Positions 19-25,562 are shown, numbered from the stretch's first letter. The stretch is DNA of 25,562 bases from an uncultured Deinococcales bacterium (GCA_964247135.1 CAXTTL010000044.1:1-25562); one strand, 5' to 3'. The notes: a model not told the origin generated them from the sequence alone. Made by a program: numbers and translations.

Positions 19-330
19 TTAACGCAAACGAATCGCTTCCATGACTTCATCGACCATTTCGGTCGCATCGCCGCGCAACGCCGCCGTGGCAACGTGCGCC
101 TCGAGATGACCGCGCAGCACCACGTCACCCGCGCCCTCGAGCGCCCCCTGAACCGCTTTGATTTGCCGCAGCACATCCACGCAGTACACGTGCGGATTCT
201 CGAGCATTCGTTGAATGCTCTCCAAATGTCCTTTGGCGATGGCGAGACGGCGAATCGCCCGTTTGCGCGACTCGAGCGGCATACATAAGACTGTTTCGGG
301 TGCTTCAATGGTGGCGGCGGTTTTGGGCAT
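19..330 (-). CDS. csoR: CsoR/RcnR family copper-sensing repressor
   Basis: RRLAIAKGHLESIQRM..YCVDVLRQIKAVQGAL..LRGHLEAHV; Cys-His-His ligand pattern as in Thermus CsoR; start overlaps the copZ stop. Confidence 0.93.
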   Translation of the reverse strand: MPKTAATIEAPETVLCMPLESRKRAIRRLAIAKGHLESIQRMLENPHVYCVDVLRQIKAVQGALEGAGDVVLRGHLEAHVATAALRGDATEMVDEVMEAIRLR

Positions 331-539
331 TACGCTTTTGCGACGCTGGCGCCGTAACCTTCGTCGATGACAGCCGCAATCAGGGCTTCGGGGTTGACAT
401 TCTGACCTTCGACGCTGGCGGTTCCGTTTTTGAGGTCAACCTGAACAGTTTGCACGCCTTCAATGCTTTTTAGGGCTTTGGCGACGGCGCTTTCGCAATG
501 TCCACAGGTCATACCACTGACGTTGAGTTGAATATTCAT
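330..539 (-). CDS. copZ: Copper chaperone, HMA domain (69 aa)
   Basis: GMTCGHC motif; ATG at 539 preceded by AGGAGG; the upstream extension in the ORF track is promoter sequence. Confidence 0.93.
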   Translation of the reverse strand: MNIQLNVSGMTCGHCESAVAKALKSIEGVQTVQVDLKNGTASVEGQNVNPEALIAAVIDEGYGASVAKA

Positions 540-553
540 GTCTTGCCTCCTGT

Positions 554-573
554 ATATCCCCTTATAGGGGTAT
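554..573. promoter_or_regulatory. Putative CsoR operator for copZ-csoR
   Basis: ATATCCCCTTATAGGGGTAT, a C-tract/G-tract pseudo-palindrome typical of CsoR sites, between the -10 and the RBS. Confidence 0.75.
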
Positions 574-579
574 GGGAAA

Positions 580-608
580 ATGCTACAACCGAACGGTTTT
601 TCCGTCAA
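580..608 (-). promoter_or_regulatory. Sigma70-type promoter of copZ-csoR
   Basis: TTGACG (608-603), 17 bp, TAGCAT (585-580). Confidence 0.75.
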
Positions 609-736
609 GTTTAGACGGTGAGGGTTCCTCGAGTTTGATGCCGAAATTATAGATTTTGAAACTCGAGAAATTCTTTCTGCACTGGGTTATCTCTCGGTAA
701 TTCGACAACGTAATCTGGGATTGTGGTGCCGATAAC

Positions 737-765
737 TTGACGATTGATTCAAATCTGAGTAGGCT
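737..765 (+). promoter_or_regulatory. Sigma70-type promoter of copA
   Basis: TTGACG (737-742), 17 bp, TAGGCT (760-765). Confidence 0.75.
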
Positions 766-775
766 GTATTTGGAT

Positions 776-795
776 TTAACCCCCAGGGGGGATTA
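776..795. promoter_or_regulatory. Putative CsoR operator for copA, overlapping the RBS
   Basis: TTAACCCCCAGGGGGGATTA C/G-tract pseudo-palindrome immediately before the ATG. Confidence 0.7.
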
Positions 796-3125
796 TGATT
801 CAAGCAAACACTCAACATCAAACCACCCTCGAGTTGGGAGTCACGGGCATGACCTGTGCCGCCTGTGTCGCTCGAGTCGAGAAGGCGCTAACCAAAGTTC
901 CTGGCGTGTTAAACGCCTCAGTCAACCTTGCCACCGAACGCGCCACGGTGCAATACATTCCCGAAAGTGCCAGTCAAACCCAGTTCAAAACCGCGATTCG
1001 AGACGCCGGTTATGACGTGCTCGAGGCGCAAGTTGGCAAGGACCGTTCGGATATTGAACGGGAGGCTCGAGAGGCTGAGATTGCCGTTTTGAAGCGCGAT
1101 TTGATCTTTGCCACAGCCTTTGGAGTGCCGCTTTTGCTGCTCGCCATGATTCCAATGCTTTGGATGCCCGCCATGATGTTTTTACAAAGTCTTGCGCCCG
1201 CACGGGTTTGGGATTGGTTGATGCTGGCGCTGGCAGTTCCCGTCTATTTTGGTCCTGGCAAACGCTTTTTGACCCACGGCTGGAAAGCCTTGATTTCCGG
1301 CAGCCCAGACATGAACAGCTTGGTCATGCTCGGCACGAGCGCCGCTTTCTGGTACAGCAGCGCGGTGGTGCTGCTCGAGACGTTTGTGCCTGGCATGATT
1401 CCCGAAAATGGACGTTCGGTCTATTTCGAGGCGGCTGGCGTGGTGATTGCCCTGATCTTGCTGGGCAAGTACCTTGAAGCAATCGCCAAAGGGCGCACCA
1501 GCCAAGCCATGAAAAAACTCTTGGGCTTGCGAGCCAAAACCGCGCGGGTGCTGCGGGGCGGCACCGAACTCGAGTTACCGATTGATGAGGTGCTGGCAAA
1601 CGATCTGGTCAGCGTTCGCCCTGGCGAAAAAATTCCCGTAGATGGCACGGTGATTTCAGGCTCGAGTTATGTGGATGAAAGCATGATCACGGGCGAACCG
1701 ATTCCGGTCAGTAAATCTGTTGGCTCGAGCGTGGTTGGCGGCACCTTGAACGGCACGGGCGCGTTGACTTTTAAGGCGACGGCGGTCGGTGCGGACACGG
1801 TGCTGGCGCAAATCATCAAACTCGTCGAAACCGCGCAGGGCAGCAAATCCCCGATTCAAGGGCTGGCAGATCGGGTGGTGGCTGTTTTTACGCCAATCGT
1901 TTTGGGAATTGCCAGTTTAACCTTTGTACTCTGGATGATTTTTGGGGGCAACAGCGCCCTGGGTTTCGCGGTGGTCAACACCGTTGCGGTCTTGATTATC
2001 GCCTGCCCCTGCGCGATGGGTTTGGCGACGCCGACCAGCATCATGGTCGGTACGGGCAAAGCCGCCGAAATGGGCGTTCTGTTTCGCAAAGGCGACGCGC
2101 TCGAGGCGTTGCAGGGCGTTCAAACGATTGCGCTGGATAAAACTGGCACGCTCACCCGTGGCAAACCCGAACTGACCGATTTGATCAACTCGAGCGACTT
2201 GACTGACACGGAATTGCTGCGCCTTCTCGCCAGCATCGAGAACCTCAGCGAGCACCCGATGGCGCAAGCGATTGTCAGCGCCGCCAAAGAGAAAGGCTTG
2301 ACACTCGAGGATGCCACTGATTTTGAGGCAAACCCAGGTTTTGGGGTTTCGGCTCGGGTTTTGGGAAGACTGGTGCAAATCGGCGCGGATCGTTACATGA
2401 CCCAGTTGGGTTTGAACCTTGAAGGCTTCTCGGGCAACGCGGCACGACTGGGTGACCAAGGGAAGTCATCACTTTACGCCGCCATAAACGGCAAACTGAG
2501 CGCAATTCTGGCGGTCGCAGACCCGATCAAAGACGGCTCGAAATTGGCGCTCGAGGAACTTCACCGAATGGGCATCAAGGTCGTGATGATTACGGGCGAC
2601 AACCAACGCACGGCTCGAGCCATCGCCGTCCAGCTCGGCATTGACGAGGTTCTTGCCGAAGTGCTGCCCGACGGAAAAGCCAAAGCCATAGCACAATTGC
2701 AAACGGGTGGCACAAAAGTGGCGTTTGTCGGCGACGGCATCAACGACGCGCCCGCGCTGGCGCAAGCCGATGTTGGGCTGGCGATTGGCACGGGCACCGA
2801 CGTCGCCATCGAAACCGCCGATGTAATTTTGATGTCCGGCGACTTGCGCGGCGTGCCAAACGCGCTGGCACTGTCTCGAGCCACGATTTCAAATATCAAA
2901 CTGAATTTATTCTGGGCGTTTGCGTACAACATCGTGCTGATTCCGGTGGCGGCTGGCGCGTTGTACCCGATTTTCGGTTGGTTGTTAAGTCCAGTTTTGG
3001 CGGGTGCGGCGATGGGATTCTCGAGCGTCTTTGTGCTGACCAATGCGCTCAGACTTCGCAGCTTCAAAGCACCACTGATTGAACGGGTCCAACCAATCAC
3101 AAAAATGCGTCTGGCGAAAGTTTAA
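795..3125 (+). CDS. copA: Cu(I)-translocating P1B-1 ATPase
   Basis: N-terminal [31 protein letters not shown] and MxxSS motifs. Confidence 0.97.
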
Positions 3126-3196
3126 AGGACTGAACCGAACAAATCATTTTCACGTATTTAAGCTGAGCCTATCATCCTGATCTCGAGGTTTTAATC

Positions 3197-3805
3197 ATGA
3201 AAAAATTATTGTTGACACTTGGACTTGCTGGCATGATCGGCTTGCTCAACTTTACCGGTTCAATTCTTGCCCAAATGAACATGGGCGAGGGCGCAATGGG
3301 CGACTCAAGCAGCAAAGCGCTGGTGAAGTTAAATGGCAAAGCGTATGACATCGCTTGGCTTTCGCAGATGATCGAACATCACCGTGGCGCAGTTCAGATG
3401 TCGAATGCGTGCCTCCAAACCTGCATCGATAAAGATGTCAAAACGGCAGCCCAAAAAATCATCAACGCGCAAGACAAAGAAATCAAACAAATGACCATGT
3501 GGTTGAAAAGCTGGTACAACGCCAAAGCCGATCCAAAACAAATGGCACTGATGAAAGCCGACAATAAATCCATGATGGACACTTCAATGACCGGCATGAC
3601 CCCAACAAGAGGTATGAAAATGCAGGCTGACCGCAGCTTTCTCGAGGGCATGATTGGGCACCACGAGCACGCCGTGGAAATGGGCAAAGATGGGGCAAAA
3701 CGTGCTTTGCGCCCAGAGTTGCGTAAGTTTGGACAGAACGTGGTGATTGATCAAAGCAAAGAGGTAAAGCAATTTCAAGGCTGGTTGAAAACCAAAAAAA
3801 TTTGA
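3197..3805 (+). CDS. Exported DUF305 (CopM-like, ferritin-fold) Met/His-rich metal-binding protein
   Basis: Signal peptide; two MIxHHxxAVxM repeats; directly after copA. Confidence 0.85.
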   Translation: MKKLLLTLGLAGMIGLLNFTGSILAQMNMGEGAMGDSSSKALVKLNGKAYDIAWLSQMIEHHRGAVQMSNACLQTCIDKDVKTAAQKIINAQDKEIKQMTMWLKSWYNAKADPKQMALMKADNKSMMDTSMTGMTPTRGMKMQADRSFLEGMIGHHEHAVEMGKDGAKRALRPELRKFGQNVVIDQSKEVKQFQGWLKTKKI

Positions 3806-3853: not shown

Positions 3854-5344
3854 ATGACCTCAAGCCTCGAGTCCGAGTTTTTACTGCCCGAAGTCAAAAC
3901 CTGGTTGTCACAACCACGCAAACTCTTGATTGCGGGCAGGTGGCTCGAGGCTGTCGATGGAAAATTCTTGACCATCATCGACCCTTGCACGGGCGGGCAA
4001 CTCGCCACCGTGGCTGCGGCAAATCTCGAGGATGTGAACCTGGCGGTGGCTGCCGCCAGGCGGGCGCTCGAGGGTTCTTGGGGCAGCACAACACCCGCCG
4101 AACGTGGACGCCTGCTGTGGAAACTGGCGGATTTGATCGACGAAAACGCCGATTTCTTGCGGCAACTCGAGAGTTTGGACACGGGCAAGCCGGTCATGGA
4201 AACGTATGTCTTTGACCTGCCGATTGCCAGCGATCACTTTCGGTACTTTGCGGGTTGGGCAACCAAACTCACGGGTGAAAGCATTCCGACCTCCTTGCCT
4301 GGCGAGGCGCTCGCCTACACCCGCCGCGAACCCGTGGGCGTGGTCGGCGCAATCACACCCTGGAATTTTCCGCTTGCGATTGCCGCCTGGAAACTCGCAC
4401 CCGCGCTGGCGTGCGGCAACACCGTGGTCTTAAAACCCAGCGAACTGACGCCGCTTTCGGCACTCAAACTGGGCGAGTTGATCCTCGAGGCAGGGTTTCC
4501 GCCAGGGGTGGTGAACATTCTGCCTGGACTTGGACTGGAGGCTGGCAATGCTTTGGTCGAACACGCCGACGTGGACAAGATCAGCTTCACGGGTTCGACC
4601 CGCGTCGGGCGTGAAATTCTGGCAAAATCGGGCGGCAATTTCAAACGCGTGACGCTCGAGCTTGGCGGTAAAAGCCCGAACATCATTCTGCCCGACGCCG
4701 ATTTGGATGTTGCCATCGACGGCAGCCTGAGCGCGATTTTTTTCAACCAAGGCGAGGCTTGCGTGGCAGGCTCGAGGTTGTTCGTGCCAAAATCCATGAG
4801 TCAAGAAATTGTCAACGCTTTAAAATCTCGAGCCGAAAGCATTGTGCAAGGTTTTGGACTTGACCCAACCTCGCAAATGGGTCCAATGGTCTCGAGTTTG
4901 CACCAAGACCGCGTGATGGGTTTCGTTGAACGTGGCAATCAACATGCCGAATTGATTACAGGCGGCTCGAGAAACACCAACCTGCCAGGGTTTTACGTCA
5001 ACCCCACGATTTTTCTGGGCAGCGACGACCTCGAGATCGCCCGTGAAGAAATTTTTGGACCTGTGTTGACCATCCTCGAGTTTGAAAACCTTGAAGACTT
5101 AACGCGCCGTGCCAACTCGAGCCAGTACGGGCTTGGCGCTGGCATCTGGACTTCGGATGTGCGCCAAGGGATTCGACTGGCGCACGCTTTAAAGGCTGGC
5201 AGCGTTTGGATTAACGGTTACGGAATGCTGGATGCCGCACTGCCTTGGGGCGGGTTTAAGAGCAGCGGCATCGGGCGTGAGATGGGTTCGGCGGCGCTCG
5301 AGACGTACACTGAACTCAAAACCGTTTGGGTGAATTTACTTTAA
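3854..5344 (+). CDS. NAD(P)-dependent aldehyde dehydrogenase
   Basis: ITPWNFP, KPSELTP, FTGST, LELGGKSP, catalytic Cys in GEACVAGSR, EEIFGP. Confidence 0.96.
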   Translation: MTSSLESEFLLPEVKTWLSQPRKLLIAGRWLEAVDGKFLTIIDPCTGGQLATVAAANLEDVNLAVAAARRALEGSWGSTTPAERGRLLWKLADLIDENADFLRQLESLDTGKPVMETYVFDLPIASDHFRYFAGWATKLTGESIPTSLPGEALAYTRREPVGVVGAITPWNFPLAIAAWKLAPALACGNTVVLKPSELTPLSALKLGELILEAGFPPGVVNILPGLGLEAGNALVEHADVDKISFTGSTRVGREILAKSGGNFKRVTLELGGKSPNIILPDADLDVAIDGSLSAIFFNQGEACVAGSRLFVPKSMSQEIVNALKSRAESIVQGFGLDPTSQMGPMVSSLHQDRVMGFVERGNQHAELITGGSRNTNLPGFYVNPTIFLGSDDLEIAREEIFGPVLTILEFENLEDLTRRANSSQYGLGAGIWTSDVRQGIRLAHALKAGSVWINGYGMLDAALPWGGFKSSGIGREMGSAALETYTELKTVWVNLL

Positions 5345-6034: not shown

Positions 6035-6256
6035 CTTGGCGTTATTAAAGAAGTCTTAATTAGTGGTTGGTTCAATCATTTGAAATGACGCCTAAGAAAC
6101 TCGAGTGGGTTAGAGTTTCGATTCCGATAGGGCAAAAATAGCATTCAAGAATTCGACTAAGTCGTGGAATTTGCCCTGGTGAAACTATTTTGTACTCAAT
6201 CCAAGATAGTTCCAAAAACCGTGAATGATAAAATGAAATTCTCCATTCGTCAAGAC

Positions 6257-6285
6257 TTGCACGATTAATTTATCAATGCTAGAGT
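6257..6285 (+). promoter_or_regulatory. Putative promoter of the lipoprotein gene
   Basis: TTGCAC, 17 bp, TAGAGT with extended -10 TG at 6277-6278. Confidence 0.6.
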
Positions 6286-6335
6286 TTTTGCTCGAGACTC
6301 CCTACCATTTCGAGTCTTACAAAAAAATCACAGGG

Positions 6336-6393
6336 GCTTCTGAAAAGGAAGCTTCTGAAAAGGAAGCTTCTGAAAAGGAAGCTTCTGAAAAGG
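6336..6393 (+). repeat. 15-bp tandem repeat GCTTCTGAAAAGGAA, 3 full copies plus 13 nt
   Basis: Units start at 6336, 6351, 6366 and 6381; the last runs into the AAGGGG RBS. Confidence 0.95.
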
Positions 6394-6401
6394 GGCTGTT
6401 T

Positions 6402-7529
6402 GTGAAGAAAGTATCGTTGTTCTACCGTTTAAGGGCTTTATCGTTATCGGCACTGATTTTGTTTACAAGTTGTGCCACCAATTTACCTCAACCTCCCAAA
6501 AGCGAAAATCCAAACATAGACACACCACAACCCATAGTCACGGCTGATGATCCAACAGCAATCAAGGGTTGGTTTTGGAATCCTTCATGGTGGGAACAAG
6601 ACGGGGCACTTGTACCTGAAGTCGTTGGCACAATCAATGAAAATCCTTGGATTTTGCAAACGGCAGGTCGCGCACGAAATGCAGCTTTAAGAACAACAGC
6701 AACAACCCCTCAGTTTAATTTAGCAAAAGCAAAACAAAAATGGAATGCAGCGACAGGACTTTTGACCGTTCTCGTACCGTTTCAAGATGTTGCATCCCCA
6801 TATTTCGCCACTGTTTTTATCCGTCCTCAATGGAATGCTTGGGGACCGCATACTTGGACTATTGAAGGCGTAGATGTAACTGGAATACTCAAAGTATCGG
6901 GAAACTCAAACATTGCTGTAATGACCGTACAAATTAATTCAGATTCTACTTTTGGTACAGGTTTTATGCAGGTTATTGACCCAGTTGCCAAAAAAACAGT
7001 TTCTAGTTTTGAAACCGAAGGCAACGCATTAGAGACTCAAATTGCATCACTTGCATCACCTACCGTAACTGCTCTCGGCGTTGAGCCTTGTGCTCCCTCT
7101 GGTGTTACGGTTGCTAAGGTAGGTTCAACAGTTCCTACCCCCGTTCCTCCATGTAAAGATAGTACGGTAAATCCACCAAAAAATACTGGTTCAAATACGA
7201 TTGACAGCAACAACACAATCTCTGAAACAAGACCATTACCATTTCCACCTGTCGATGCTTCACAACCAGACTGTGCCGCCCTGTTACAGGCATGGAAAGA
7301 TGCTGACGAAACTAGAAAAAATGCTGACGAAAACTCTCGCTCATACTGGGCAGCATCAGGAGCATTTTGTACCGGTGCTGCTGTGCAAGTAGGGCTAGAC
7401 CCCCTTACCGATGTCGCATGTGGCATTGCTGTTTGGCAGGCTAAAGTTGCTACTGCTCAAATGAATCAAGCTCGAAAAGCTGAAGCTCGAGCAGCAGCAG
7501 CTTATAAGAATGCCAATTGTAAAAAGTAA
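6402..7529 (+). CDS. Lipoprotein with Pro-rich linker and Cys-rich helical C-terminal domain (possible toxin)
   Basis: GTG at 6402 after AAGGGG; signal peptide with FTS-C lipobox; six further Cys in the C-terminal part; AT-rich. Confidence 0.75.
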   Translation: MKKVSLFYRLRALSLSALILFTSCATNLPQPPKSENPNIDTPQPIVTADDPTAIKGWFWNPSWWEQDGALVPEVVGTINENPWILQTAGRARNAALRTTATTPQFNLAKAKQKWNAATGLLTVLVPFQDVASPYFATVFIRPQWNAWGPHTWTIEGVDVTGILKVSGNSNIAVMTVQINSDSTFGTGFMQVIDPVAKKTVSSFETEGNALETQIASLASPTVTALGVEPCAPSGVTVAKVGSTVPTPVPPCKDSTVNPPKNTGSNTIDSNNTISETRPLPFPPVDASQPDCAALLQAWKDADETRKNADENSRSYWAASGAFCTGAAVQVGLDPLTDVACGIAVWQAKVATAQMNQARKAEARAAAAYKNANCKK

Positions 7530-7537
7530 ACAACTGC

Positions 7538-7573
7538 TTTCCTGGGTTAAGAAAGCTTTCTTAACCCAGGAAA
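7538..7573. terminator. Perfect 36-bp palindrome (terminator or RNA-processing stem)
   Basis: TTTCCTGGGTTAAGAAAG|CTTTCTTAACCCAGGAAA. Confidence 0.7.
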
Positions 7574-7592
7574 ACTAGTGGAGGAGAATACT

Positions 7593-7874
7593 ATGGATTT
7601 TATCTTAGATAGCGATCATATTTTCACATATATTGGCGCAACTATCACTGGTTTGATACTTTATGGTTTTTTTAAAAAAGATTCAAAAAGAATTTTCTTT
7701 TCTAGTATAGCGTTGACTATTATCTCTGCTCTCTACATTCTCTGGTCAACGAGAAATCTTAAAACTACACCAGAATCTAATGTTTTTAAAAATTATATAA
7801 TTCCTGATTTTATTATTTTTCTTTGTATAAATATTGGGATCATACCAAATATTTTACGCAAAAAAGTAAGCTAG
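7593..7874 (+). CDS. Small membrane protein, about 3 TM segments (possible immunity protein)
   Basis: GGAGG RBS then ATG 7593; three hydrophobic stretches separated by Lys-rich loops; very AT-rich. Confidence 0.75.
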   Translation: MDFILDSDHIFTYIGATITGLILYGFFKKDSKRIFFSSIALTIISALYILWSTRNLKTTPESNVFKNYIIPDFIIFLCINIGIIPNILRKKVS

Positions 7875-7922
7875 CCATAACTTAAATATAATAAACGCTT
7901 AAATTCTATATCTAATTATAAA

Positions 7923-7952
7923 GTAAAGGGTGAGCAAATGCTCACCCTTTAC
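7923..7952. terminator. Bidirectional terminator between convergent genes
   Basis: GTAAAGGGTGAGCA-aa-TGCTCACCCTTTAC, 14-bp stem. Confidence 0.8.
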
Positions 7953-7973
7953 ATATTGCTTCTCGAGATTCTA

Positions 7974-9726: not shown

Positions 9727-11256
9727 GTGAGCAACCCAACCAGCCAACCAGACCTCGAGATCAGCCTTCACGAACAAACCGTTGCGCGGTTGAACAACGC
9801 CGACGCGATTGTGGCGGCGGGTTTTGAACGCTTTCCGTACAGTTATAACCAAACCCATCATGCCGATCAGTTGCACAAATTACACCCCGCGCCGCTCGAG
9901 CCTGGGCAAGAGTGGCTGGCAGAAAAAGTCGGCGTGGCGGGGCGCGTCATGGCGTGGCGCGACATTGGCAAACTGATTTTTGCCAGTTTGCAAGACGAGA
10001 CTGGACGGATTCAGTTGTTCATGTCCAAAAACGAACTCGAGCATTTTGATGTGGCAAAAAAGATTGACCTGGGCGATATCATCGGGGTTTCGGGGCATCT
10101 CATCACGACCAAATCGGGTGAGTTGTCGATCAAGGCGACCAGTTTCACGCCGCTGGTGAAGTCCTTGCACCCGCTGCCGAGCGATTACTATGGTTTGACG
10201 GATGTTGAAACGCGTTACCGTCAGCGTTATTTGGATTTGATCGTCAATCCAGATTCTCGGGCGGTCTTCAAGGCGCGTTCCAAGACCCTGCGGTTTATCC
10301 GGGATTTTTATGAGGCTCGAGATTTCATGGAGGTCGAAGGTCCGACGCTGCAAGCGATTGCGGGCGGGACTGAAGCCAAACCTTTTAAGACGCATCACAA
10401 TGCGCTGGGTCACACGTTTAACTTGCGGATCGCGCTCGAGCTGCATTTGAAGCGCTTGTTGGTCGGCGGCTTCGAGCGGGTCTATGAAATTGGGCGCGTG
10501 TACCGCAATGAAGGCATTGATCTGACCCACAATCCAGAGTTCACGATGCTCGAGTTGTACTGGGCATACGCGGATTACAGGGATATGGCGAAGATGACCG
10601 AGGATTTGTTCCGTGGGTTGGCGCTTGAGGTGACGGGCGGCACGATGCTGGAGTTTGAGGGTAAAACACTGGATTTTGGAGCGCCGTTCAACGAAATCGA
10701 TTACGTTGAAGGCTTAAAGAAGCACGTGCCCGATTTGGATTTTGACCCGCTCGAGCTTTCAAAACTGCGGGCGTTTTGTGACGCGCGTTACCCGCAGTGG
10801 AAGGGGGTGCCCGATTACAAGTTGCTGGACAAGTTGTTCGGCGAGTACGTCGAACCGCTCTTGGTCAACCCGACGTTTGTCATGAATCACCCACTGGCGA
10901 TCAGCCCGCTGACCAAGCCTCACCGTTCCAAACCCGGTCTGACCGAACGCTTTGAATTGTTCGTGGCTGGTTTTGAGGTCGCCAACGCCTACAGCGAGTT
11001 GAACGATGCCGCCGAACAACGCGCCAGGTTTGAAGCCCAAAGCGCCCGCCGCGACGCTGGCGACGACGAAGCGCACGAGCAAGACGAGGATTTTTTGGTC
11101 TCGCTCGAGTACGGAATGCCGCCCGCCGCTGGCATTGGCATCGGCATTGACCGCCTGGTGATGCTTTTGACCAACCGTGTCAGCATCCGTGACGTGCTGT
11201 TATTTCCACTCTTAAAACCCGAGAAGGTTGCCACCACAAATGAAGGGCTAGCGTAA
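9727..11256 (+). CDS. lysS: Lysyl-tRNA synthetase, class II
   Basis: [50 protein letters not shown] start after AAGGAG. Confidence 0.98.
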
Positions 11257-15258: not shown

Positions 15259-16461
15259 ATGTCTGACAAGAAAAAAGTGGTACTCGCCTACAGCGGTGGC
15301 TTGGACACCAGCATGATCTTAAAGTGGCTTCAACTCGAGCGCGATTACGAAGTCGTGTGCTTCACCGCCGACATCGGGCAGGGCGAAGAGGTCGAGGAGG
15401 CTCGAGTCAAAGCCCTCAACACGGGCGCAGTTGCCGCTTACGCCCTGGATTTACGCGAAGAATTCGTGCGCGATTTTGTCTTCCCGATGCAACGATCCTC
15501 GAGCTTGTACGAAGGGTATTACCTGCTCGGCACAAGCATCGCTCGACCGCTGATTGCCAAGCATCTTGTCGAGATCGCCTTCAAAGAAAACGCCGAAGCC
15601 ATCTCACACGGCGCGACCGGCAAAGGCAACGACCAAGTACGTTTTGAAATCAGCGCCTACGCCTTAAACCCAGAAATCAAAATCATTGCCCCCTGGCGCG
15701 AATGGGGACAAAGTGGGCGCAAAGAACTGATGGAATTTGCCGCCAAACACAACATTCCCGTTCCAGTAAGCGCCGCCAAACCCTACAGCGTAGACTCGAA
15801 CTTGTTGCACAACAGCTTTGAAGGCGGAATTCTCGAGGACCCGTGGGCTGAGCCGCCAACTGGCATGTTCAAACTGACCAAGTACATTGAAGACACCCCA
15901 AACACTCCCGAATACGTCGAAATCGAATTTGTCGCAGGCGATCCTGTCGCCATCAACGGCGAGAAATTAAGTCCAGCCGCACTGCTCGAGAAAGCCAACC
16001 AAATCGCGGGCAATCACGGCATTGGCGTGGTGGATTTGGTCGAGAATCGTTTTGTCGGCATGAAGTCCAGAGGGGTTTACGAAACTCCAGGCGGCACGCT
16101 CTTGTACCACGCCCGTCGCGCCGTCGAAAGCATCACGCTCGACCGCGAAGTGCTGCACACTCGAGACAGTATGCAAGCCAAATACGCCGAATTGGTTTAC
16201 AACGGTTTTTGGTTTACCGCTGAACGCGAATCCATGCAAGTTTATTTTGACCATGTGGCAAAAAGCACCACAGGCATTGCCCGCATGAAAATGTTCAAAG
16301 GTCAAGCGTTGGTGGTTGGACGCAAATCCCCGATCAGCCTGTACGACCCGACGCTGGTCACGTTTGAGAAAGAAACCGTCTACGACCAAGCCGATGCTGG
16401 CGGGTTTATCAAACTGAACGCCCTTCGTGCTCGAGTTCGCGCGAGGTTGCAAAAGGATTGA
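15259..16461 (+). CDS. argG: Argininosuccinate synthase
   Basis: [50 protein letters not shown] before ATG 15259. Confidence 0.98.
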
Positions 16462-16516
16462 ATTCGGCTGTGAAATGATAGTTGATGCTCGAGTTTAGGC
16501 AGGTTGCAAAAGGATT
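16428..16516 (+). repeat. Imperfect direct duplication of the argG 3' end
   Basis: TGCTCGAGTT-cgcgcg-AGGTTGCAAAAGGATT (16428-16459) versus TGCTCGAGTT-taggc-AGGTTGCAAAAGGATT (16486-16516). Confidence 0.88.
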
Positions 16517-16549
16517 AAGAGCATCTACAATAAGCAAAAGAGGTGAATT

Positions 16550-16798
16550 ATGACACTCGAGATTAGTGAAAACACCATGCGAATGCTTGAAGCTGAAGCA
16601 GCCCGCCAGCACACCAAACCAGAAGTTTTGGCAGATGAATTCATCCAAATTGGAATCACCAAATCTCTGGAAAATTCAAAAGGCTTCAGCGCCTTTTTAG
16701 GGCTATGGTCAAACGCCGAAGCAGAAGAATTTAAACAAGCCATAGCTCCACTTTCCAGTGTGGATGAGGAGTTATGGCGTGAAAAAAATCTTGATTGA
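16550..16798 (+). CDS. vapB: Probable antitoxin (VapB-like)
   Basis: 82 aa; RHH-like N-terminus and acidic tail GLWSNAEAEEF..VDEELW; overlaps a PIN-domain gene. Confidence 0.75.
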   Translation: MTLEISENTMRMLEAEAARQHTKPEVLADEFIQIGITKSLENSKGFSAFLGLWSNAEAEEFKQAIAPLSSVDEELWREKNLD

Positions 16799-17174
16799 CA
16801 CAAATGCTTACTCCGAGCTGATAGAAGGCAACGTCAAAATTCAGGTTATTCTCGATGCCCACAGCGTTTGCATACCCCTGATCGTTATTGCAGAACTCAG
16901 GGCAGGATTTCAATACGGTTCAAGACAACAAAAGAACGAGCAAATTCTCAAAGCCTTTCTCGAGAAAGCTGAAGTGATCGCACCAAATTTAGAAACCACT
17001 ACCGAATACGCAAAGATTTATGCAGCGTTGCGTAAGGCTGGAAATCCAATACCAACCAATGACATTTGGATTGCAGCCATTGGCAAACAGTATGACCTGC
17101 CGCTTCTGACGTTGGATTCTCACTTTCGGTTTATCGATGGACTTGTGGTTGTGAATCCTCTCGAGAATTCGTAA
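16779..17174 (+). CDS. vapC: PIN-domain toxin
   Basis: ILIDTN, AELRAG, PIPTNDIWIAA, LLTLDSHF; GTG at 16779 after GAGGAG. Confidence 0.93.
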   Translation: MKKILIDTNAYSELIEGNVKIQVILDAHSVCIPLIVIAELRAGFQYGSRQQKNEQILKAFLEKAEVIAPNLETTTEYAKIYAALRKAGNPIPTNDIWIAAIGKQYDLPLLTLDSHFRFIDGLVVVNPLENS

Positions 17175-17196
17175 ACAATACTTTAGTGAAAGCAAA

Positions 17197-17751
17197 ATGA
17201 TTATGCCCAAGAAGAAAGTCATTTCAATGCTCGAGTTTTTACGAACAGGAATGTTTGGTGGATTGTCTGTTGGTGCCGATATTTCTAATTTACTCCCTCT
17301 TTTTGGCGAACCAACCTACATCAAAGATTACAGGGACTTTACAGCAAAATGGGCTTACGAAGACATGGAATTTTATGTAAATCTCGAGCTGCAAAAAGTT
17401 TACGGGATTATTATTAATGGTTTTCAAAACAGCGATGACCTAGGACGTTTCCCACGCGAAAACAAAGAATTTAAGATAGACCCCTGGGTTCTGCGTTGGG
17501 AATCAGGTTTATTGAACACAAAGAATGCTTTAGATTCAGTAAATTTGGAGTTTCTACAAATCCCTAACGCACCAAGCGAAGGTTATGAAACTTTTCGACT
17601 CAAATCGGGAACACAAATTATTTTTGCCGAAGAACCAGTTTGGGTAGATGGAAAACAAGTTTGGACTGAAAATCCAAGAATCGTTATTGATGCAATTATC
17701 AACACCAGTAGTGAACTGGCTAAAACTTCGTCTGATTTTCAATATTCATGA
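17197..17751 (+). CDS. Hypothetical protein (184 aa), AT-rich
   Basis: Long ORF closely packed in the operon; no motif recognised. Confidence 0.75.
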   Translation: MIMPKKKVISMLEFLRTGMFGGLSVGADISNLLPLFGEPTYIKDYRDFTAKWAYEDMEFYVNLELQKVYGIIINGFQNSDDLGRFPRENKEFKIDPWVLRWESGLLNTKNALDSVNLEFLQIPNAPSEGYETFRLKSGTQIIFAEEPVWVDGKQVWTENPRIVIDAIINTSSELAKTSSDFQYS

Positions 17752-17763
17752 AAGTTTATATCC

Positions 17764-18177
17764 GTGAATCTATCAAAACCTCAATTCTTTTTTGATCTCG
17801 AGCGTCCAACCATCGTGTGCTTGTGCGGTTCAACACGGTTTTATGATGTGTTTTCAATATTGAATCTCGAGGAAACCTTAGCTGGAAAAATCGTGCTTTC
17901 CATTGCGTCAGACCGTCAAACCGAAGACGAAATTTTTGCGACCATGAACGAACTTGAACTCGAGCAAGTCAAACAAAAACTCGAGAAACTGCATTACCAA
18001 AAAATTGATTTGGCAGACGAAATTCTGGTGGTGAACGTGAACGGTTATGTGGGTGAAAGTACCACTCGAGAAATTTTGTACGCTCGAGAAACCAAGAAAA
18101 CCGTTCGTTGGCTCGAGCCTGAAAATATACCCAATTGGTTTGACCTCAACTCTCGAGAGGAGCAAGTACGTGGTTGA
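17764..18177 (+). CDS. Nucleoside 2-deoxyribosyltransferase-like / DUF4406-like protein
   Basis: IVCLCGSTRF..LHYQKIDLADEILVVNVNGYVGESTTREILYA. Confidence 0.7.
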   Translation: MNLSKPQFFFDLERPTIVCLCGSTRFYDVFSILNLEETLAGKIVLSIASDRQTEDEIFATMNELELEQVKQKLEKLHYQKIDLADEILVVNVNGYVGESTTREILYARETKKTVRWLEPENIPNWFDLNSREEQVRG

Positions 18178-18682
18178 TTCATTTGCCCATTGTGGATACT
18201 GCGGGACAGCCTTCGCACCCGATCAGCCCGTTCACACTCGAGTCTGCTCGGGTTGTGGGCGCACCAGTTACCGCAACCCCACGCCCGTCGCGGTCACACT
18301 CGTCCCCGTTGCGCTCGAGACTGGAAGTGAAGGCTTGTTGGTGATTCGGCGCAGCATTCCACCCAAAGAAGGACAACTTGCTTTGCCTGGTGGTTTTATC
18401 AGTTACGGCGAATCCTGGCAAGTGGGCGCTGTTCGAGAAGTTTTTGAAGAAACAGGTTTGCAACTCGAGGCGGAATCAATTCGTTTGGCAAGTGTTTTAA
18501 GCGCTCCTGACAGCACCATTCTGATTTTTGGAATTGCGCCAGTTCAAGCTTCAAACGTGCTCGAGGGTTTGAGCATCTCGAGTGAAACGTCCGAGGTGGC
18601 GGTTTTAAAATCCTTTGCAGCTTTGGCTTTTCCGCTGCACACAAAAGTTGCTCAAGAATTTTTTGCTGGAACACTTCGTTAA
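18170..18682 (+). CDS. Zinc-ribbon NUDIX hydrolase
   Basis: CGYCG..CSGCG..YRNP and Nudix box GGFISYGESWQVGAVREVFEETGL; GTG 18170 after GAGGAG. Confidence 0.92.
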   Translation: MVDSFAHCGYCGTAFAPDQPVHTRVCSGCGRTSYRNPTPVAVTLVPVALETGSEGLLVIRRSIPPKEGQLALPGGFISYGESWQVGAVREVFEETGLQLEAESIRLASVLSAPDSTILIFGIAPVQASNVLEGLSISSETSEVAVLKSFAALAFPLHTKVAQEFFAGTLR

Positions 18683-18713: not shown

Positions 18714-19166
18714 ATGAAAACACATTTAAAGGAAATAATTTCACGGGTCACGCCTTATCTTGAGGCTTTGACAAATGAAGCTGTTTCTTTCAAGTCAGAC
18801 CCGAATGTGTGGTCAGGCAAAGAAATCCTTGGTCATTTGATTGATTCTGCCATGCACAACCACGAACGTTTTGTTGGCTTGGGAACAGGTGAAAAGCTCG
18901 AGTTTCCTGGCGATAATCAAGATTCATGGGTGAGTTTTCAACATTGGCAGGAACGCGATTGGCTCGAGATTGTGGGTTTATGGAAATCCTACAACCTTCA
19001 TCTCGCTTGGCTGATTGAACACCTGCCAGATGATGTACTCGAGCGGAAAGCCATTGTTTTTCTCAGTCGAAAGACCATAACTTTAGGTTGGTTGATCAAA
19101 CATTATCTCGAGCACCTCGAGCATCACTTAAAACAAATTGATGAGCGCGTCAGAGGAATATCATGA
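18714..19166 (+). CDS. DinB/YfiT family protein
   Basis: WSGKEILGHLIDSA..QDSWV..HYLEHLEHHLKQI. Confidence 0.9.
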   Translation: MKTHLKEIISRVTPYLEALTNEAVSFKSDPNVWSGKEILGHLIDSAMHNHERFVGLGTGEKLEFPGDNQDSWVSFQHWQERDWLEIVGLWKSYNLHLAWLIEHLPDDVLERKAIVFLSRKTITLGWLIKHYLEHLEHHLKQIDERVRGIS

Positions 19167-21848: not shown

Positions 21849-22026
21849 ATTGGATTGCGTTCAGATTGCAGACGATTTTTGGGTTTCTTTTTTTGATTGC
21901 ATTCGTCTGAAACTGTTCTGCACAATACCGTTTGGTTTTGTGGTGTGATTTTCTGCCATCCATTTCAGGCTCGAGGTGCGATACTAAAACTCGATTTTCA
22001 AACTCTTCTTGAAGGCTCGAGGTTTT

Positions 22027-23694
22027 ATGGTGACGCGCTCGATTGCTGTGCTGACTCTATTGCTTTTAACGGCTTGTGGCTCGAGTCCTACGCCTGAACC
22101 TTTGGTGGACTTGGGCGACCCAACGGCGGTTTCGCAGACAGCTTTAAACTTGTGGCGCAAGCAGCAGGTCAAAGGCTCTTGCAGCGGTTGTCACGGCGCA
22201 GATTTTTATGATCTGGCACGGATTGGGTCTTCGGATTTTACGATTCACCGTCGGGCGACGAACGACGGCGCGACAGAAAACGAAGCCAAAGCCTTGGTGC
22301 AAGCGGTTCATAACACCCGAGAAAAATTTCAGTTACCTGCCGAAAATCCGCTCGAGTTTAGACCGTTTCAGCCTTCTGCTGCGCCACTTCCTGGGAGCAC
22401 CCCTGTTGAACGGGACATTGCGCTCGGGCATCAACTCGAGACGCTGACACCAACTTTGATGGGTGCTCCGGTGGATTCGCTCGAGAAAGCCAAAAGTGCG
22501 TGTTCTGAAATGCTGGCAATCAATTTGCGTTCCATGCCGACGGGGATTGTCTATCCGCGTTGGTCGAGCGATGCGTTTAACGGGTCTGAAATGGCAACCA
22601 TGAACGATTGGGTCTCCGACATTGCACGTGAACCGATTCCCGAAAAACGCCTCGAGTGGCAAGCGTTGCAAAGTGCCTACCTCGAGAATCCGTCGGATCA
22701 GAATTTTTGGCGCATGTACGCGGCGGTGGACAGCATGACACAACCGTTTGCGGTAACGGTGGGTGCAGACGCGATCAATTTTACGAATCAAAAATTTAAG
22801 GCGGCATTGATCGGACAGCATTTGTTACGCCAAGAAAAAGTGGCAAACTCGAGTTTTATGCAGGGAAAATTGGCGTTCTCGTACCTCGAGAAACCCGAGT
22901 GGCAAAGCATCATCAAGACCTCAGAATTTTTGCCTGGCAACAATTTGTGGGAGGTTGGCGACAACGCCCGCACGGTGTTGGGCAATCACAACAACCTGGC
23001 TGGCGTCGATGTCAGCAATGCGCGAAAAGTGCTCGAGGCGAGAGGTTTTCCAAAGTTTGCGGTGGACAGTGTAAACGCTGATCGCTCGAGTTTTGTCCAC
23101 GAGGAAGAAGTGCGGCTGGCGTGGTTTTGGATTGGTTTTACGGTTGATCCCAGTTTTGCGCGGGTTTCTGGCAGCAACAGCACCAAGGTTGGCGAGTACA
23201 TGATCGCGAGTTTACTCAACGTCAACATGCACCTACACGATTCGTTTTTTACCAACATGCGGCTTTGCGCCAAAGGTCTATTGCCCGAGGGGAACTATAA
23301 AAGCACGCCCGCGTTTAAACCCGATTACGGTTATTTTGTGGGTTATGGGCGCGAAATCCTCAAATGGAATTGGAGCAAGGGCGACCCAATCATTCCCGAT
23401 GCTCAAAAACTCGAGCAGCAGAACTTGTGGCACAGGTTTACAGGCAATGGTTTTCGCATGAGTTTATACCTGAACTTGGACACGCTCGAGCATCTGGACG
23501 CGGCTGGGCTTGCCAAAGAACGCGCTTGGGTGCTGGGCGGCGACGGTTTGTACGGCATTAATCCTGCCACGGGCAAATCCGATGACCGTGCGCCGTGGAA
23601 TGCCATGCAAAATCATTTCGCCACTTACGAACCCGAAAACGCCACGGCAGACACGGCATTGATTGCCAAAGTCATGACAAAATTAAGCTTGTAG
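22027..23694 (+). CDS. Lipoprotein with a single CxxCH haem-binding motif and a large uncharacterised domain
   Basis: ATG 22027; LTA-C lipobox; GSCSGCHG. Confidence 0.8.
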   Translation: MVTRSIAVLTLLLLTACGSSPTPEPLVDLGDPTAVSQTALNLWRKQQVKGSCSGCHGADFYDLARIGSSDFTIHRRATNDGATENEAKALVQAVHNTREKFQLPAENPLEFRPFQPSAAPLPGSTPVERDIALGHQLETLTPTLMGAPVDSLEKAKSACSEMLAINLRSMPTGIVYPRWSSDAFNGSEMATMNDWVSDIAREPIPEKRLEWQALQSAYLENPSDQNFWRMYAAVDSMTQPFAVTVGADAINFTNQKFKAALIGQHLLRQEKVANSSFMQGKLAFSYLEKPEWQSIIKTSEFLPGNNLWEVGDNARTVLGNHNNLAGVDVSNARKVLEARGFPKFAVDSVNADRSSFVHEEEVRLAWFWIGFTVDPSFARVSGSNSTKVGEYMIASLLNVNMHLHDSFFTNMRLCAKGLLPEGNYKSTPAFKPDYGYFVGYGREILKWNWSKGDPIIPDAQKLEQQNLWHRFTGNGFRMSLYLNLDTLEHLDAAGLAKERAWVLGGDGLYGINPATGKSDDRAPWNAMQNHFATYEPENATADTALIAKVMTKLSL

Positions 23695-23696
23695 AT

Positions 23697-24047
23697 TTAA
23701 GCTGGCTCGAGTTCGGGCTTTAATGCTGGTTTCCAATGCACCCGCGCCCAGGAGTCAATTGCGCCCACAACGGTCTGAAGCTCGTATCCCGCGCACGTCA
23801 GTTTGTAACTGGTGCGCGGCGGCATGGTGCTGTGCACGGTTTTACTAACAATCCCTTCGCGCTCGAGCATCTCGAGGCGCTCTGAGAGGGTGCTGGGGTT
23901 GCAGTTGCCGACATCCCGTCGGATTTCGTTGAAGCCTTTGCTGCCATCCAAAAGTGTACGGACAATATATAAAACCCATTTCTCTTGCAAAAAAGAGATG
24001 GCTGCTACGGCTGGACAGGGTGTTTCGACCTCGTTCACGGTTTGCAT
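23697..24047 (-). CDS. HxlR/DUF24 winged-helix regulator (start may be GTG at 24038)
   Basis: CP..EKWVLYIVRTL..FNEIRR..TLSERLEMLE..PPRTSYKLT. Confidence 0.92.
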   Translation of the reverse strand: MQTVNEVETPCPAVAAISFLQEKWVLYIVRTLLDGSKGFNEIRRDVGNCNPSTLSERLEMLEREGIVSKTVHSTMPPRTSYKLTCAGYELQTVVGAIDSWARVHWKPALKPELEPA

Positions 24048-24138
24048 TTTAACACAACTTGGTATTTTCGTTTACATTCTAAATTACTATGGAATATATA
24101 CTACTATTGTTCGGGATCACCCAACAGGAGGAATACCT

Positions 24139-24681
24139 ATGAGCCAAACTTGGAACATTGACGCCAGCCACACCAGCCTCGACTTCGCGGTAAAACACAT
24201 GGCAATCTCTACCGTGCGCGGGCATTTCAAGGCACTCTCGGGAACAGTCACCACCAACGATTCTGGTGCCCTCGAGAGCATCGAAGCCACCATCGACGCC
24301 AGCACCATCGACACCAAAGACGCCCAACGCGACGGACACCTCAAGAGCCCAGATTTTTTTGATGTTGCCAGCCACCCCAACATCACCTTCAAAAGCACCA
24401 GTGTTCAAGCCAAAGGCGGCAACGAATACAGTGTCACCGGCGACCTGAGTATGCACGGCATCACCAAACCCGTGACGCTGGCGGTTGAAACTGCCACGCC
24501 AATCAAAGACCCTTGGGGCATGACCCGCACCGCCGCCAGCGGCACCGCCAAAATCTCGCGCAAAGAATGGGATTTGACCTGGAATCAGGTGCTCGAGCTG
24601 GGCGCGTTGTTGGTCGGCGATGAAATCAAAATCACGCTCGAGGTTGAAGCGGTGATCCCGCCAGCCGCACCAGCCGCGTAA
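24139..24681 (+). CDS. YceI family polyisoprenoid-binding protein
   Basis: WNIDASHTSLDFAVKHM..VRGHF, RDGHLKSPDFFD, GDLSMHGITKPV; AGGAGG RBS. Confidence 0.95.
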   Translation: MSQTWNIDASHTSLDFAVKHMAISTVRGHFKALSGTVTTNDSGALESIEATIDASTIDTKDAQRDGHLKSPDFFDVASHPNITFKSTSVQAKGGNEYSVTGDLSMHGITKPVTLAVETATPIKDPWGMTRTAASGTAKISRKEWDLTWNQVLELGALLVGDEIKITLEVEAVIPPAAPAA

Positions 24682-24704
24682 AGTCAGCAACTGCTCGGTC
24701 TACC

Positions 24705-24784
24705 CTCTCTTGACCATAAAACGCACCTGGCGGGCATGGTCGCTCATCCCCAACCCTTCTCCCAACATCAGGAGAAGGGAGTTT
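24705..24784 (-). repeat. REP-like palindrome (host B) carrying 36-bp insertion E4 (24708-24743)
   Basis: Minus strand AAACTCCCTTCTCCTGATGTTGGGAGAAGGGTTGGGGATGA[GCGACCATGCCCGCCAGGTGCGTTTTATGGTCAAGA]GAG. Confidence 0.9.
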
Positions 24785-24836
24785 AGGTTTTTTACACGTG
24801 TGGCTCGAGGTTTTGTCTTTTTTAAGGTTCGAGCTT

Positions 24837-25469
24837 TTACGCCTGGGCTTGAGCACCTGCCAGCACCTTCGACATTGCCTCGTAAAGCAATTGATCCAAA
24901 ACCTCGAGTTCCTCATCAAGCACCATCTCGGCACTCGAAAGCACCCGCTCGAGTTCTTCGACGGCATCGCCGAAGGGCTGCGAATTGACGCGCTCGTGAA
25001 ACACGCTGACCAACGGCGCGAGCGCCCCGCGCACCACCTGGCGGAAACGCTCGAGCGTCTCGCTTTCGTCAAGCTCGAGTTTGGGCGGAATCAAATCGAG
25101 GTTTTGCGCCTGAACCCGCTCGAGGGTGTCCCGCGCAATGTCGGGCAGTTTTGCCAGGTAATGCGAATCTTTGACAATATAATTGGCTGCCCCAGCGTGC
25201 AGCGCTTTGACTGCCAGTTGCGCCTCGGAACGACCCGTCACCAGAATCACGGGCGCACCGAACGGCAAGAGTTTCTCGAGCAAGGTCAAACCGTCGGTGT
25301 CGGGCAGTTGGTAATCGAGCATCACCAAGTCAAACGTGCCAACCCGCGCCGCCTCCAACCCCGCCGCGCCCGTCAGTTCGTGCGCCACTGCAAAACCTGC
25401 CCGCTCGAGAAAACGGCTGGCAACGAACGCTTGATCCGGGTTGTCTTCAATCAGCAAAATTCGTGACAT
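24837..25469 (-). CDS. Response regulator: receiver domain plus unidentified helical C-terminus
   Basis: RILLIEDN, DLVMLDYQLPD, VILVTG, GAANYIVK. Confidence 0.9.
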   Translation of the reverse strand: MSRILLIEDNPDQAFVASRFLERAGFAVAHELTGAAGLEAARVGTFDLVMLDYQLPDTDGLTLLEKLLPFGAPVILVTGRSEAQLAVKALHAGAANYIVKDSHYLAKLPDIARDTLERVQAQNLDLIPPKLELDESETLERFRQVVRGALAPLVSVFHERVNSQPFGDAVEELERVLSSAEMVLDEELEVLDQLLYEAMSKVLAGAQAQA

Positions 25470-25562
25470 GCGCGTCCATTCTCGAGATGGTGTGGCACTT
25501 CTGAAGGATCAGTCTAAGCCAAATTGCTGATTTTCGGAGCAAATATGCAAAAAATGTTGTTT

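Follow-up and report, generated by a model that had tools for sequence, protein, structure and literature searches.

CTCGAG is a genome-wide, actively maintained highly iterated palindrome in an uncultured family of Deinococcales

Results

CTCGAG sites and genes of the window

We analysed contig CAXTTL010000044.1 (C44) of the Deinococcales metagenome-assembled genome (MAG) GCA_964247135.1 over its full length of 25,562 nucleotides, hereafter the window, with respect to the palindromic hexamer CTCGAG. The genome, G000, comprises 5,091,702 bases in 386 contigs and is rated 84% complete. The window has the gene content of an ordinary chromosome, including genes for a P-type ATPase, an aldehyde dehydrogenase and an aminotransferase as well as rplS, lysS, pfk, argG, argH and others, and an Rfam search of it gave no match. 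The closest loci belong to MAGs labelled 'Deinococcales bacterium', and outside the family the closest lysS match is from Deinococcus.

CTCGAG occurs 191 times in the window, from positions 100-105 to positions 25481-25486. The original prediction, made from this DNA alone, had arrived at the same count by hand over 100..25486. Base composition gives an expectation of ~6.9 copies, in agreement with the 6-7 copies estimated there; the genome as a whole is at 25-35 times expectation. Over 100 dinucleotide-preserving shuffles of the window the mean was 4.81 copies (sd 1.87, maximum 9), and none reached 191. Rough open reading frame (ORF) calls place 105 sites in frame 0 (CTC GAG, Leu-Glu), with 24 in frame 1 and 38 in frame 2; a further 24 fall in the 3,485 noncoding bases (6.9 per kb). 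Sites are present in lysS and the aldehyde dehydrogenase gene (Table 1) and in argH (12), argG (10) and rplS (3). Their occurrence in all three frames, in conserved genes (lysS, argH, rplS) and in intergenic DNA is thus as had been described. Any two copies are mutually complementary, and a 6-bp stem between them is possible.

Table 1. Positions of features in the window, counted from its first base.
Feature	Position	Strand	Description
Dispersed CTCGAG hexamer array	100..25486	none	n = 191; mean spacing ~133 bases
Aldehyde dehydrogenase gene	3854..5344	+	15 CTCGAG (10.1 per kb), 12 Leu-Glu
Site-poor strain-specific insertion	6036..7959	none	GC 0.40; 3 CTCGAG in 1,924 bases (1.6 per kb); absent from congener locus L001
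ORF within the site-poor insertion	6276..7529		417 aa
Ribosomal protein L19 ORF	7974..8813	-	279 aa
lysS, class II lysyl-tRNA synthetase	9727..11256	+	8 CTCGAG
Site-rich strain-specific insertion	16460..18179		8.1 CTCGAG per kb
CTCGAG pair 9 bases apart (CTCGAG-NNN-CTCGAG)	19107..19121	none	Coordinates from site count
Another CTCGAG pair, 9 bases apart	23862..23876	none	Coordinates from site count

Genome-wide abundance of a bare hexamer

Genome G000 contains 33,925 copies of CTCGAG, or 6.7 per kb (~1 per 150 bases), which by arithmetic from the counts occupy 4.0% of its bases. No other 6-mer reaches half this count, and the second and third most frequent 6-mers overlap CTCGAG. The observed/expected ratio is 24.7 from composition (order 0) and 35.2, 14.4 and 3.4 under Markov models of order 1, 2 and 3, respectively. 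The maximal-order Markov ratio, 1.24, is uninformative because the 5-mers are themselves dominated by sub-words of CTCGAG. The hexamer therefore has the hallmark of a highly iterated palindrome (HIP), a short palindrome whose frequency greatly exceeds what composition and low-order Markov models predict. It is distinct from HIP1 proper, which is GCGATCGC in cyanobacteria, and CGATCG is found only 47 times in G000.

Over the 386 contigs the density of sites has a median of 6.8 per kb and in none of them falls below 2.56 per kb. Two sites or fewer were seen in 7 of 2,341 2-kb windows, whose mean GC content is 0.40. An assembly or contig artefact, including an excess restricted to the contig at hand, is rejected because every contig is enriched and 12 independent assemblies of relatives agree, one of which is a single-contig chromosome.

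The flanks of the sites are weak, with G at -1 in 39% and C at +1 in 38% of all sites. Around noncoding sites the sole signal is a symmetric A at -3 and T at +3, each in 45% (0.19 bit), and extension of the palindrome beyond CTCGAG is at chance level. The repeated unit is thus the bare hexamer; a longer hidden motif or a mobile element was ruled out on the same two grounds, noncoding flanks of at most 0.19 bit and extension by chance.

Spacing between sites is near-exponential, with a mean of 148 bases, a coefficient of variation of 0.96 and a deficit below ~20-60 bases that amounts to short-range repulsion. It also displays a three-base periodicity because frame 0 is preferred. Sites 6 bases apart, which would create GAGCTC, do not occur at all. 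A spacing of 8 bases is rare as well (11 cases, versus 87 at 7 bases and 115 at 9 bases), and GAGNNCTC, with 383 copies in G000 versus 1,723 for GAGNCTC, may be another avoided word.

A separate observation concerns the ends of genes. Genome-wide, the density of CTCGAG is doubled, to 13.1 per kb, within 30 bases 3' of stop codons, with a sharp spike of sites starting exactly 2 bases after the stop (131 versus ~30 per position) for which the preference for A at -3 alone is an insufficient explanation. In several cases downstream of stops, two copies form the stem of a terminator-like hairpin that is followed by a T run.

Sites in coding and noncoding DNA

Genes of G000 were defined by a greedy pick of ORFs of at least 100 aa, which gave 4,616 ORFs covering 87% of the genome. 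CTCGAG is at least as dense outside these ORFs (7.57 per kb) as within them (6.56 per kb). The coding sites fall into frame 0 (17,738), frame 1 (4,647) and frame 2 (6,747), and the latter two frames are enriched ~12- and ~17-fold, respectively. When synonymous codons were permuted within genes in 10 replicates, 4,085 +/- 50 sites remained versus 29,132 observed, so that 14% are explained by a procedure that preserves protein sequence and codon usage, both of which are already inflated by CTCGAG. Ten sites lie inside the 66 predicted tRNA genes. Sites are thus found within ORFs in several frames and between ORFs, beyond what codon usage provides. The pressure acts on DNA and not on translation, and codon or amino-acid usage is not its cause. 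The earlier argument that codon bias is insufficient therefore holds, and the excess survived both the Markov and the codon-shuffled statistics that had been proposed as checks.

This pressure has raised Leu-Glu and Ser-Ser in the proteome. Leu-Glu heads the over-represented dipeptides, with 23,096 occurrences versus 9,640 expected (2.40-fold), compared with a ratio of 1.01 for Glu-Leu; Ser-Ser is over-represented 1.63-fold. CTCGAG encodes 77% of Leu-Glu pairs, yet CTC makes up 24% of Leu codons and GAG 46% of Glu codons. The aldehyde dehydrogenase gene illustrates both this effect on the protein and the conservation of sites described below: Leu-Glu occurs 7-12 times in the proteins of the window and 10 relatives from enriched lineages, versus 1-6 times in 70 orthologs from other lineages, the genes of which carry 0-4 CTCGAG sites.

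Conservation and turnover of sites

Three regions of G000, ~50 kb in all, were aligned with five to seven congeners at ~84-89% nucleotide identity. In pairwise comparisons, 805 of 1,038 CTCGAG sites were intact, versus 44.6% of all other hexamers. Mismatches at third codon positions amounted to 13.1% inside sites and 28.5% outside, and those in noncoding DNA to 5.3% and 15.2%, respectively. In the 789 cases in which two or more other taxa concurred in having CTCGAG, the focal lineage had lost the site 84 times, versus 235 predicted from control rates matched for base and codon position. The loss rate of sites is thus 0.36 times that of the controls, a roughly threefold slowing relative to comparable sequence. 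The losses are mainly transitions, to CTCAAG/CTTGAG (25), CTCGAA/TTCGAG (17) and CCCGAG/CTCGGG (13). Among positions with at least three taxa, 170 are common to all, 84 are loss-like in a single taxon and 52 are gain-like in a single taxon.

Conservation extends to individual genes. All 12-13 sites in the aldehyde dehydrogenase genes of each of four congeners are at the positions seen in the window, as are 4-6 of the 7-17 sites in six more distant relatives from across the genera (65-73% protein identity). In lysS, four congeners retain 7-8 of the window's 8 sites, and two other genera of the family retain 3 and 1. Conservation between related genomes above background is a further property of HIPs. 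CTCGAG is thus actively maintained, with gains and losses both ongoing. The ratio of CTCGAG to each of its transition neighbours in G000 is 14-21 times the composition expectation, from which we infer a population-scaled bias toward the exact hexamer of ~2.7-3.1, i.e. a weak, genome-wide directional force.

Distribution across lineages

The excess is common to all 12 other genomes of the same family (f1), which represent at least five genera and contain 21,883-35,442 copies in 4.2-5.7 Mb; they include the single-contig genome G011 (OZ252252.1). Counts for two further families were taken from 151 genomes of the phylum. In family f5, the 20 genomes of genera g12-g14 have 3,336-12,522 copies (1.4-3.4 per kb), with 278-2,187 copies of the reversed word GAGCTC, and two g13 genomes carry the label Meiothermus sp. 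The 27 genomes of genus g9 of the same family (1.8-2.5 Mb, putatively Thermus) show no excess, with 1,455-2,803 copies, about equal to GAGCTC. In family f3, the 77 genomes of genus g7, putatively Deinococcus, are depleted (26-1,010 copies). Among 34 named Deinococcus or Deinococcaceae loci of 3-21.5 kb each, 18 have no CTCGAG and the others 1-9, and most named Deinococcus species have 0-5 copies per ~20 kb. Since the family is enriched and Deinococcus depleted, a single order spans the range from purging of this hexamer to its 25-fold enrichment. The enrichment is lineage-specific, encompassing a whole uncultured Deinococcales family and, more weakly, a neighbouring family.

Most Deinococcus loci of ~20 kb lack both CTCGAG and GAGCTC (loci L281-L309, L314, L315, L317 and L319). 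Deinococcus pimensis is an exception, with 1,341 CTCGAG and 3,417 GAGCTC genome-wide.

We searched the literature, supplementary files being outside the search, on CTCGAG, HIPs, Meiothermus, Deinococcus-Thermus and methylomes and found no report of CTCGAG enrichment. The available portion of Elhai 2015 (PMC4390886) mentions neither Deinococcota nor Meiothermus. No earlier report of CTCGAG hyper-abundance in Deinococcota or Meiothermus was thus found, HIPs as such being already known in cyanobacteria.

Acquired DNA and phages

The window contains two strain-specific insertions (Table 1). The low GC content and the scarcity of sites in one of them indicate that newly arrived DNA lacks CTCGAG; the ORF within it has no Pfam match. 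A recently acquired MvaI/BcnI restriction-modification (R-M) pair elsewhere in G000 (GC 0.38-0.40) likewise carries 0 and 1 sites. The other insertion is site-rich, which is a caveat to the scarcity of CTCGAG in acquired DNA. With this caveat, the hexamer resembles uptake sequences in its genome-wide excess, its presence throughout the family and its scarcity in recently acquired DNA.

The site-rich insertion is absent from congener locus L004, lies directly after argG, carries a PIN-domain gene and probably circulates within the lineage. Its left junction has a direct repeat of ~28 bp (CTCGAGTT...GGTTGCAAAAGGATT). Site-specific integration at CTCGAG was considered for both insertions and rejected upon inspection of their boundaries: the ~28-bp repeat contains a site by chance, and nothing motif-specific was seen.

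Meiothermus phage MMP17 (MH939157; accession from PMC7448439) has 87 CTCGAG sites (observed/expected 7.8), the hexamer being its top palindromic one. Its relative, Thermus phage Riverbug, has 23 sites (observed/expected 2.0), and Thermus phage P23-77 has 2. Judged from this one phage pair, MMP17 follows its host, and in Meiothermus the motif is not a restriction target avoided by this phage. Among the matches listed, viral contigs with triple CTCGAG are mostly of high GC content, have 3-7 sites per kb and have no bearing on this lineage. At 26062-27388 of MMP17, a D12 methyltransferase gene adjoins a gene annotated as a very-short-patch-repair endonuclease, for which no match was found in G000.

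Two other features were observed in G000. A dispersed repeat of ~50 bp at G000:C2:11089-11139 (locus L116:1089-1139) recurs at 79-100% identity on dozens of contigs, with copies in each of the five congeners. The ribosomal protein L19 ORF of the window has a C-terminal helix-hairpin-helix match (HHH_5, DUF4332), and either the protein is unusually extended or the ORF call is too long.

Search for enzymes acting on CTCGAG

The original prediction had named as checks a depletion of one-mismatch variants and a Vsr-like nuclease or an orphan CTCGAG methyltransferase co-distributed with the enrichment. Neither the depletion nor such an agent was found. The three transition classes of one-mismatch neighbours are at 1.2-1.8 times expectation (TTCGAG/CTCGAA 1.7, CTTGAG/CTCAAG 1.2), and the Vsr nuclease (PF03852) was found in 0 of 21 genomes; the combination that marks Vsr-type very-short-patch (VSP) repair, a nuclease together with depletion of T:G-derived neighbours, is therefore not seen. 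A search for five DNA-methyltransferase Pfam families in six genomes of the family revealed no ortholog common to all six, the family MAGs being 74-94% complete and a search of this kind being one that methyltransferases of unknown families would escape. XhoI-family nucleases (PF04555) had no match in the 13 family genomes and one in G015, a genome of another family, PaeR7I-type nucleases not being covered by this search; no cognate nuclease that would make CTCGAG an XhoI-type R-M target was thus found.

The methyltransferases of G000 that are paired with nucleases are of NgoPII, Eco29kI, MvaI/BcnI, NotI-like and SacI-like types. The others comprise two MmeI-like enzymes, a 1,499-aa N6-methylase-helicase fusion and a 466-aa ORF with a partial PF01555 match. 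An orphan PF01555 enzyme adjoins alaS, and this synteny is kept in G000, G002 (93% identity) and G007 (73-74%). At 73% identity or more the alaS-linked enzyme was found only in these three genomes and as a fragment in G010, and not in the closed genome G011. It was rejected as the agent for its patchy presence in the family, and it is 26% identical to the methyltransferase beside the XhoI nuclease of G015. Genome G011, with 23,515 CTCGAG sites, has no PF01555 match and one C5 enzyme, located in a low-GC island; its PF02384 and PF07669 matches are a Type I HsdM and a Type ISP enzyme, and it also has two D12 enzymes.

A D12-class enzyme is present in 6 of the 13 family genomes. One of the two D12 enzymes is Dam-like and was discarded as the agent, since it was not found in G000 and is not co-distributed with the enrichment; outside the family, matches of at least 50% identity occur only in genus g6 (2 of the 151 phylum genomes). 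The second D12 enzyme has a SacI-family nuclease (PF09566, 29.7 bits) as its partner in an operon on G000:C320 (locus L148:320-2244, minus strand). The pair occurs in G000, G001, G002, G003 (with one stop codon), G005 and G011, and the D12 methyltransferase of phage MMP17 is 37-40% identical to these SacI-linked enzymes. GAGCTC, the reversed word and SacI site, is absent from the 5.09 Mb of G000 and has 0-25 copies in 11 of the 13 family genomes. Its absence from G000 fits a GAGCTC specificity of the pair better than a role at CTCGAG. Judging from sequence, the pair is likely a GAGCTC R-M system that purged its own target.

Many other palindromic hexamers are also nearly absent from G000, among them GGGCCC (1), CGGCCG (3), AGGCCT (4), CGTACG (5), GGATCC (7) and CCGCGG (11). 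Some have a counterpart among the R-M pairs of the genome, one of NgoPII type (GGCC) on C14 and one of Eco29kI type (CCGCGG) on C178; further pairs are of MvaI/BcnI type on C189 and NotI-like on C207.

Of the 13 family genomes, 7 have large PDDEXK_1 ORFs that match AddAB in size (691-989 aa). Such ORFs are also present in the three other families in which the motif is at normal or raised levels, whereas the two Deinococcus-like genomes, which are depleted of the motif, yielded none.

Discussion

CTCGAG is a DNA-level, lineage-wide and actively maintained HIP of an uncultured Deinococcales family. The HIP1-like pattern that had first drawn attention to it, a short palindrome at 25-35 times expectation in several frames and between genes, is real. 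As for the lineage-specific system supposed to create and keep the motif, its lineage specificity and the maintenance of sites (84 losses versus 235) stand, but the proposed methylase and repair agents were not found.

We tentatively favour, at somewhat less than even confidence, a function as a self-DNA signal in uptake and recombination that is spread by molecular drive. The directional force would be exerted by a dimeric protein reading the palindrome. By analogy with known uptake sequences, CTCGAG would mark DNA as 'self' in natural transformation and homologous recombination. Fragments bearing it would be preferentially taken up or recombined, and the motif would then spread via molecular drive, as proposed for the uptake signal sequences (USS) of Pasteurellaceae, the DNA uptake sequences (DUS) of Neisseriaceae and recently HIP1. 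Elements long resident in these cells, including phages, would be stamped likewise. A more specific version is rather doubtful: that in the family and, more weakly, in the Meiothermus group with its phages the 6-bp palindrome by itself, without a dedicated methyltransferase, serves as a self-DNA signal in uptake, in recombination or in the control of nucleases, that drive overwrote 4% of the genome and added ~13,000 Leu-Glu pairs, and that Deinococcus purges the same hexamer.

Several points speak against the uptake and recombination signal. It is proposed by analogy only, and no candidate for a protein that reads or binds CTCGAG was found. Known uptake sequences are 9-12 bp long and non-palindromic, from which a 6-bp palindrome differs, and CTCGAG offers only ~25-fold discrimination per site. 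Thermus and Deinococcus are naturally competent; these competent relatives do not share the motif, the Thermus-sized genomes being without enrichment and Deinococcus depleted. Gains from one-mismatch precursors conserved in other taxa are not raised (4 versus 3.3 expected, in a set of 158 that is biased toward constrained positions). Losses are not visibly compensated by gains, with 3 losses accompanied by a gain in the same lineage within 60 bp versus 2.0 under the null, a comparison of low power; selection on regional density is therefore not favoured. Finally, selection and biased conversion are inseparable by these tests.

Other explanations were weighed on the same evidence. That the excess stems from codon-pair or amino-acid preference, or from assembly or binning, was tested and is rejected as extremely improbable: frame 0 is indeed the commonest, with 17,738 of the 29,132 coding sites, but the noncoding density, the enrichment of frames 1 and 2, the small share explained by synonymous shuffling, the agreement of all contigs and twelve independent assemblies, and the conservation of sites at orthologous positions all contradict it. 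We consider it unlikely that an orphan methyltransferase modifies CTCGAG and that the methylated motif is read in replication, repair, gene regulation or uptake, as for HIP1. Such a role has a precedent, in that two methylases recognise HIP1, whose influence on transformation is described as methylation-dependent (PMC13756078; 10.1101/2024.09.10.611283). The family genomes are rich in methyltransferases, the PF01555 orphan beside alaS keeps its synteny in three genomes, and a candidate D12-class enzyme of six family genomes has a homolog in the enriched Meiothermus phage. Nevertheless, no enzyme is common to all six genomes examined, and G011 has its many sites with no PF01555 enzyme and with a C5 enzyme only in a low-GC island. 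At 73% identity or more, the alaS-linked orphan was found only in four genomes, one of them with a fragment, the Dam-like enzyme was not found in G000 and outside the family has matches of at least 50% identity only in genus g6, and the remaining D12 enzyme, with its SacI-family partner, suits GAGCTC, the very word that the genome lacks.

A functionless by-product has a similarly low probability in our view. Here, sequence-directed nicking or mismatch correction in probably polyploid cells would convert near-cognates to CTCGAG, just as VSP repair favours CCWGG in E. coli. The weakness of the apparent force and its uniformity across coding and noncoding DNA, tRNA genes included, would fit, as would the stamping of a resident phage and the lack of compensation between nearby losses and gains; CTTGAG/CTCAAG is moreover the top loss class yet the scarcest transition neighbour, as if removed fastest. 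Known repair biases are, however, ~two-fold and not 25-fold, Vsr was not found in the 21 genomes searched, one-mismatch neighbours are not depleted, and conserved precursors yield no more gains than expected. Xu et al. 2018 (PMC5861425) argue from conservation against such a reading of HIP1. Quite improbable, finally, is a Chi-like or nuclease-attenuating self signal, by which an AddAB-type or defence nuclease would degrade site-poor DNA, or a binding site for an abundant nucleoid protein. The occurrence of AddAB-sized PDDEXK_1 ORFs in part of the family and not in the two depleted genomes is consistent with the former, and Kamoku & Nielsen 2024 (10.1101/2024.09.10.611283) mention a Chi-like effect for HIP1. 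The symmetric flanks suit a dimeric binding protein, and the near-random spacing with short-range repulsion also agrees. On the other side, Thermus-sized genomes have the same nuclease type and no enrichment, and no candidate for a binding protein emerged. The asymmetry and strand skew of known Chi sites are moreover impossible for a palindrome.

HIP1 has been a largely unexplained curiosity of cyanobacteria for thirty years, and CTCGAG, as an independent and denser case in another phylum, makes the phenomenon general. With the same hexamer purged, normal or 25-fold enriched within one order, lineages can be compared directly, and the weaker forms in Meiothermus-type genomes, together with an isolated Meiothermus phage, make methylome, transformation and pull-down work feasible. 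The dipeptide excess (Leu-Glu 2.4-fold, Ser-Ser 1.6-fold) is a clean case of DNA-level pressure on proteins. In practical terms, CTCGAG offers a sharp signature by which metagenome contigs can be binned and recent arrivals of DNA recognised in these genomes, and digestion of such DNA with XhoI would give cuts ~150 bp apart.

Comparison with known systems

The target of the XhoI and PaeR7I R-M systems is the same hexamer. Such targets are expected to be avoided, as is the case in Deinococcus; the family is instead enriched. The USS and DUS are 9-12 bp long, non-palindromic and present at ~1 per kb, and their uptake bias was shown experimentally. CTCGAG resembles them in its excess in coding and noncoding DNA, its conservation at the family level, its scarcity in acquired DNA, its use in terminator stems and its effect on peptides. 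It differs in being a 6-bp palindrome at ~1 per 150 bases, for which a role in uptake is suggested by analogy.

Closer in form are GGCGCC of Calothrix PCC 7103 and the other alternative HIPs described in the available portion of Elhai 2015 (PMC4390886), the former being, like CTCGAG, a palindromic hexamer and an extreme outlier of a single lineage. The alternative HIPs covered there are cyanobacterial and restricted to single strains or small groups, whereas CTCGAG characterizes a family of at least five genera and, more weakly, a neighbouring family.

The closest parallel is HIP1 itself, which is described as 15- to 300-fold hyper-abundant, in and between genes, and conserved between genomes (Xu et al. 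2018, PMC5861425). It is reported to enhance transformation (Kamoku & Nielsen 2024, bioRxiv 10.1101/2024.09.10.611283), and an uptake-sequence role was proposed along with its methylases DmtA and DmtC (Rodriguez-Cruz et al. 2026, PMC13756078). Both motifs are short hyper-abundant palindromes, found in and between genes, conserved, lineage-wide with exceptions and of unsettled function. HIP1 is a cyanobacterial octamer with DmtA and DmtC, whereas CTCGAG is a Deinococcota hexamer at 6.7 per kb for which the five Pfam families searched in six genomes gave no cognate orphan methyltransferase. CTCGAG is further set apart from HIP1 by its near-random local spacing and by the visible dipeptide imprint that it has left on the proteome, with Leu-Glu raised 2.4-fold.

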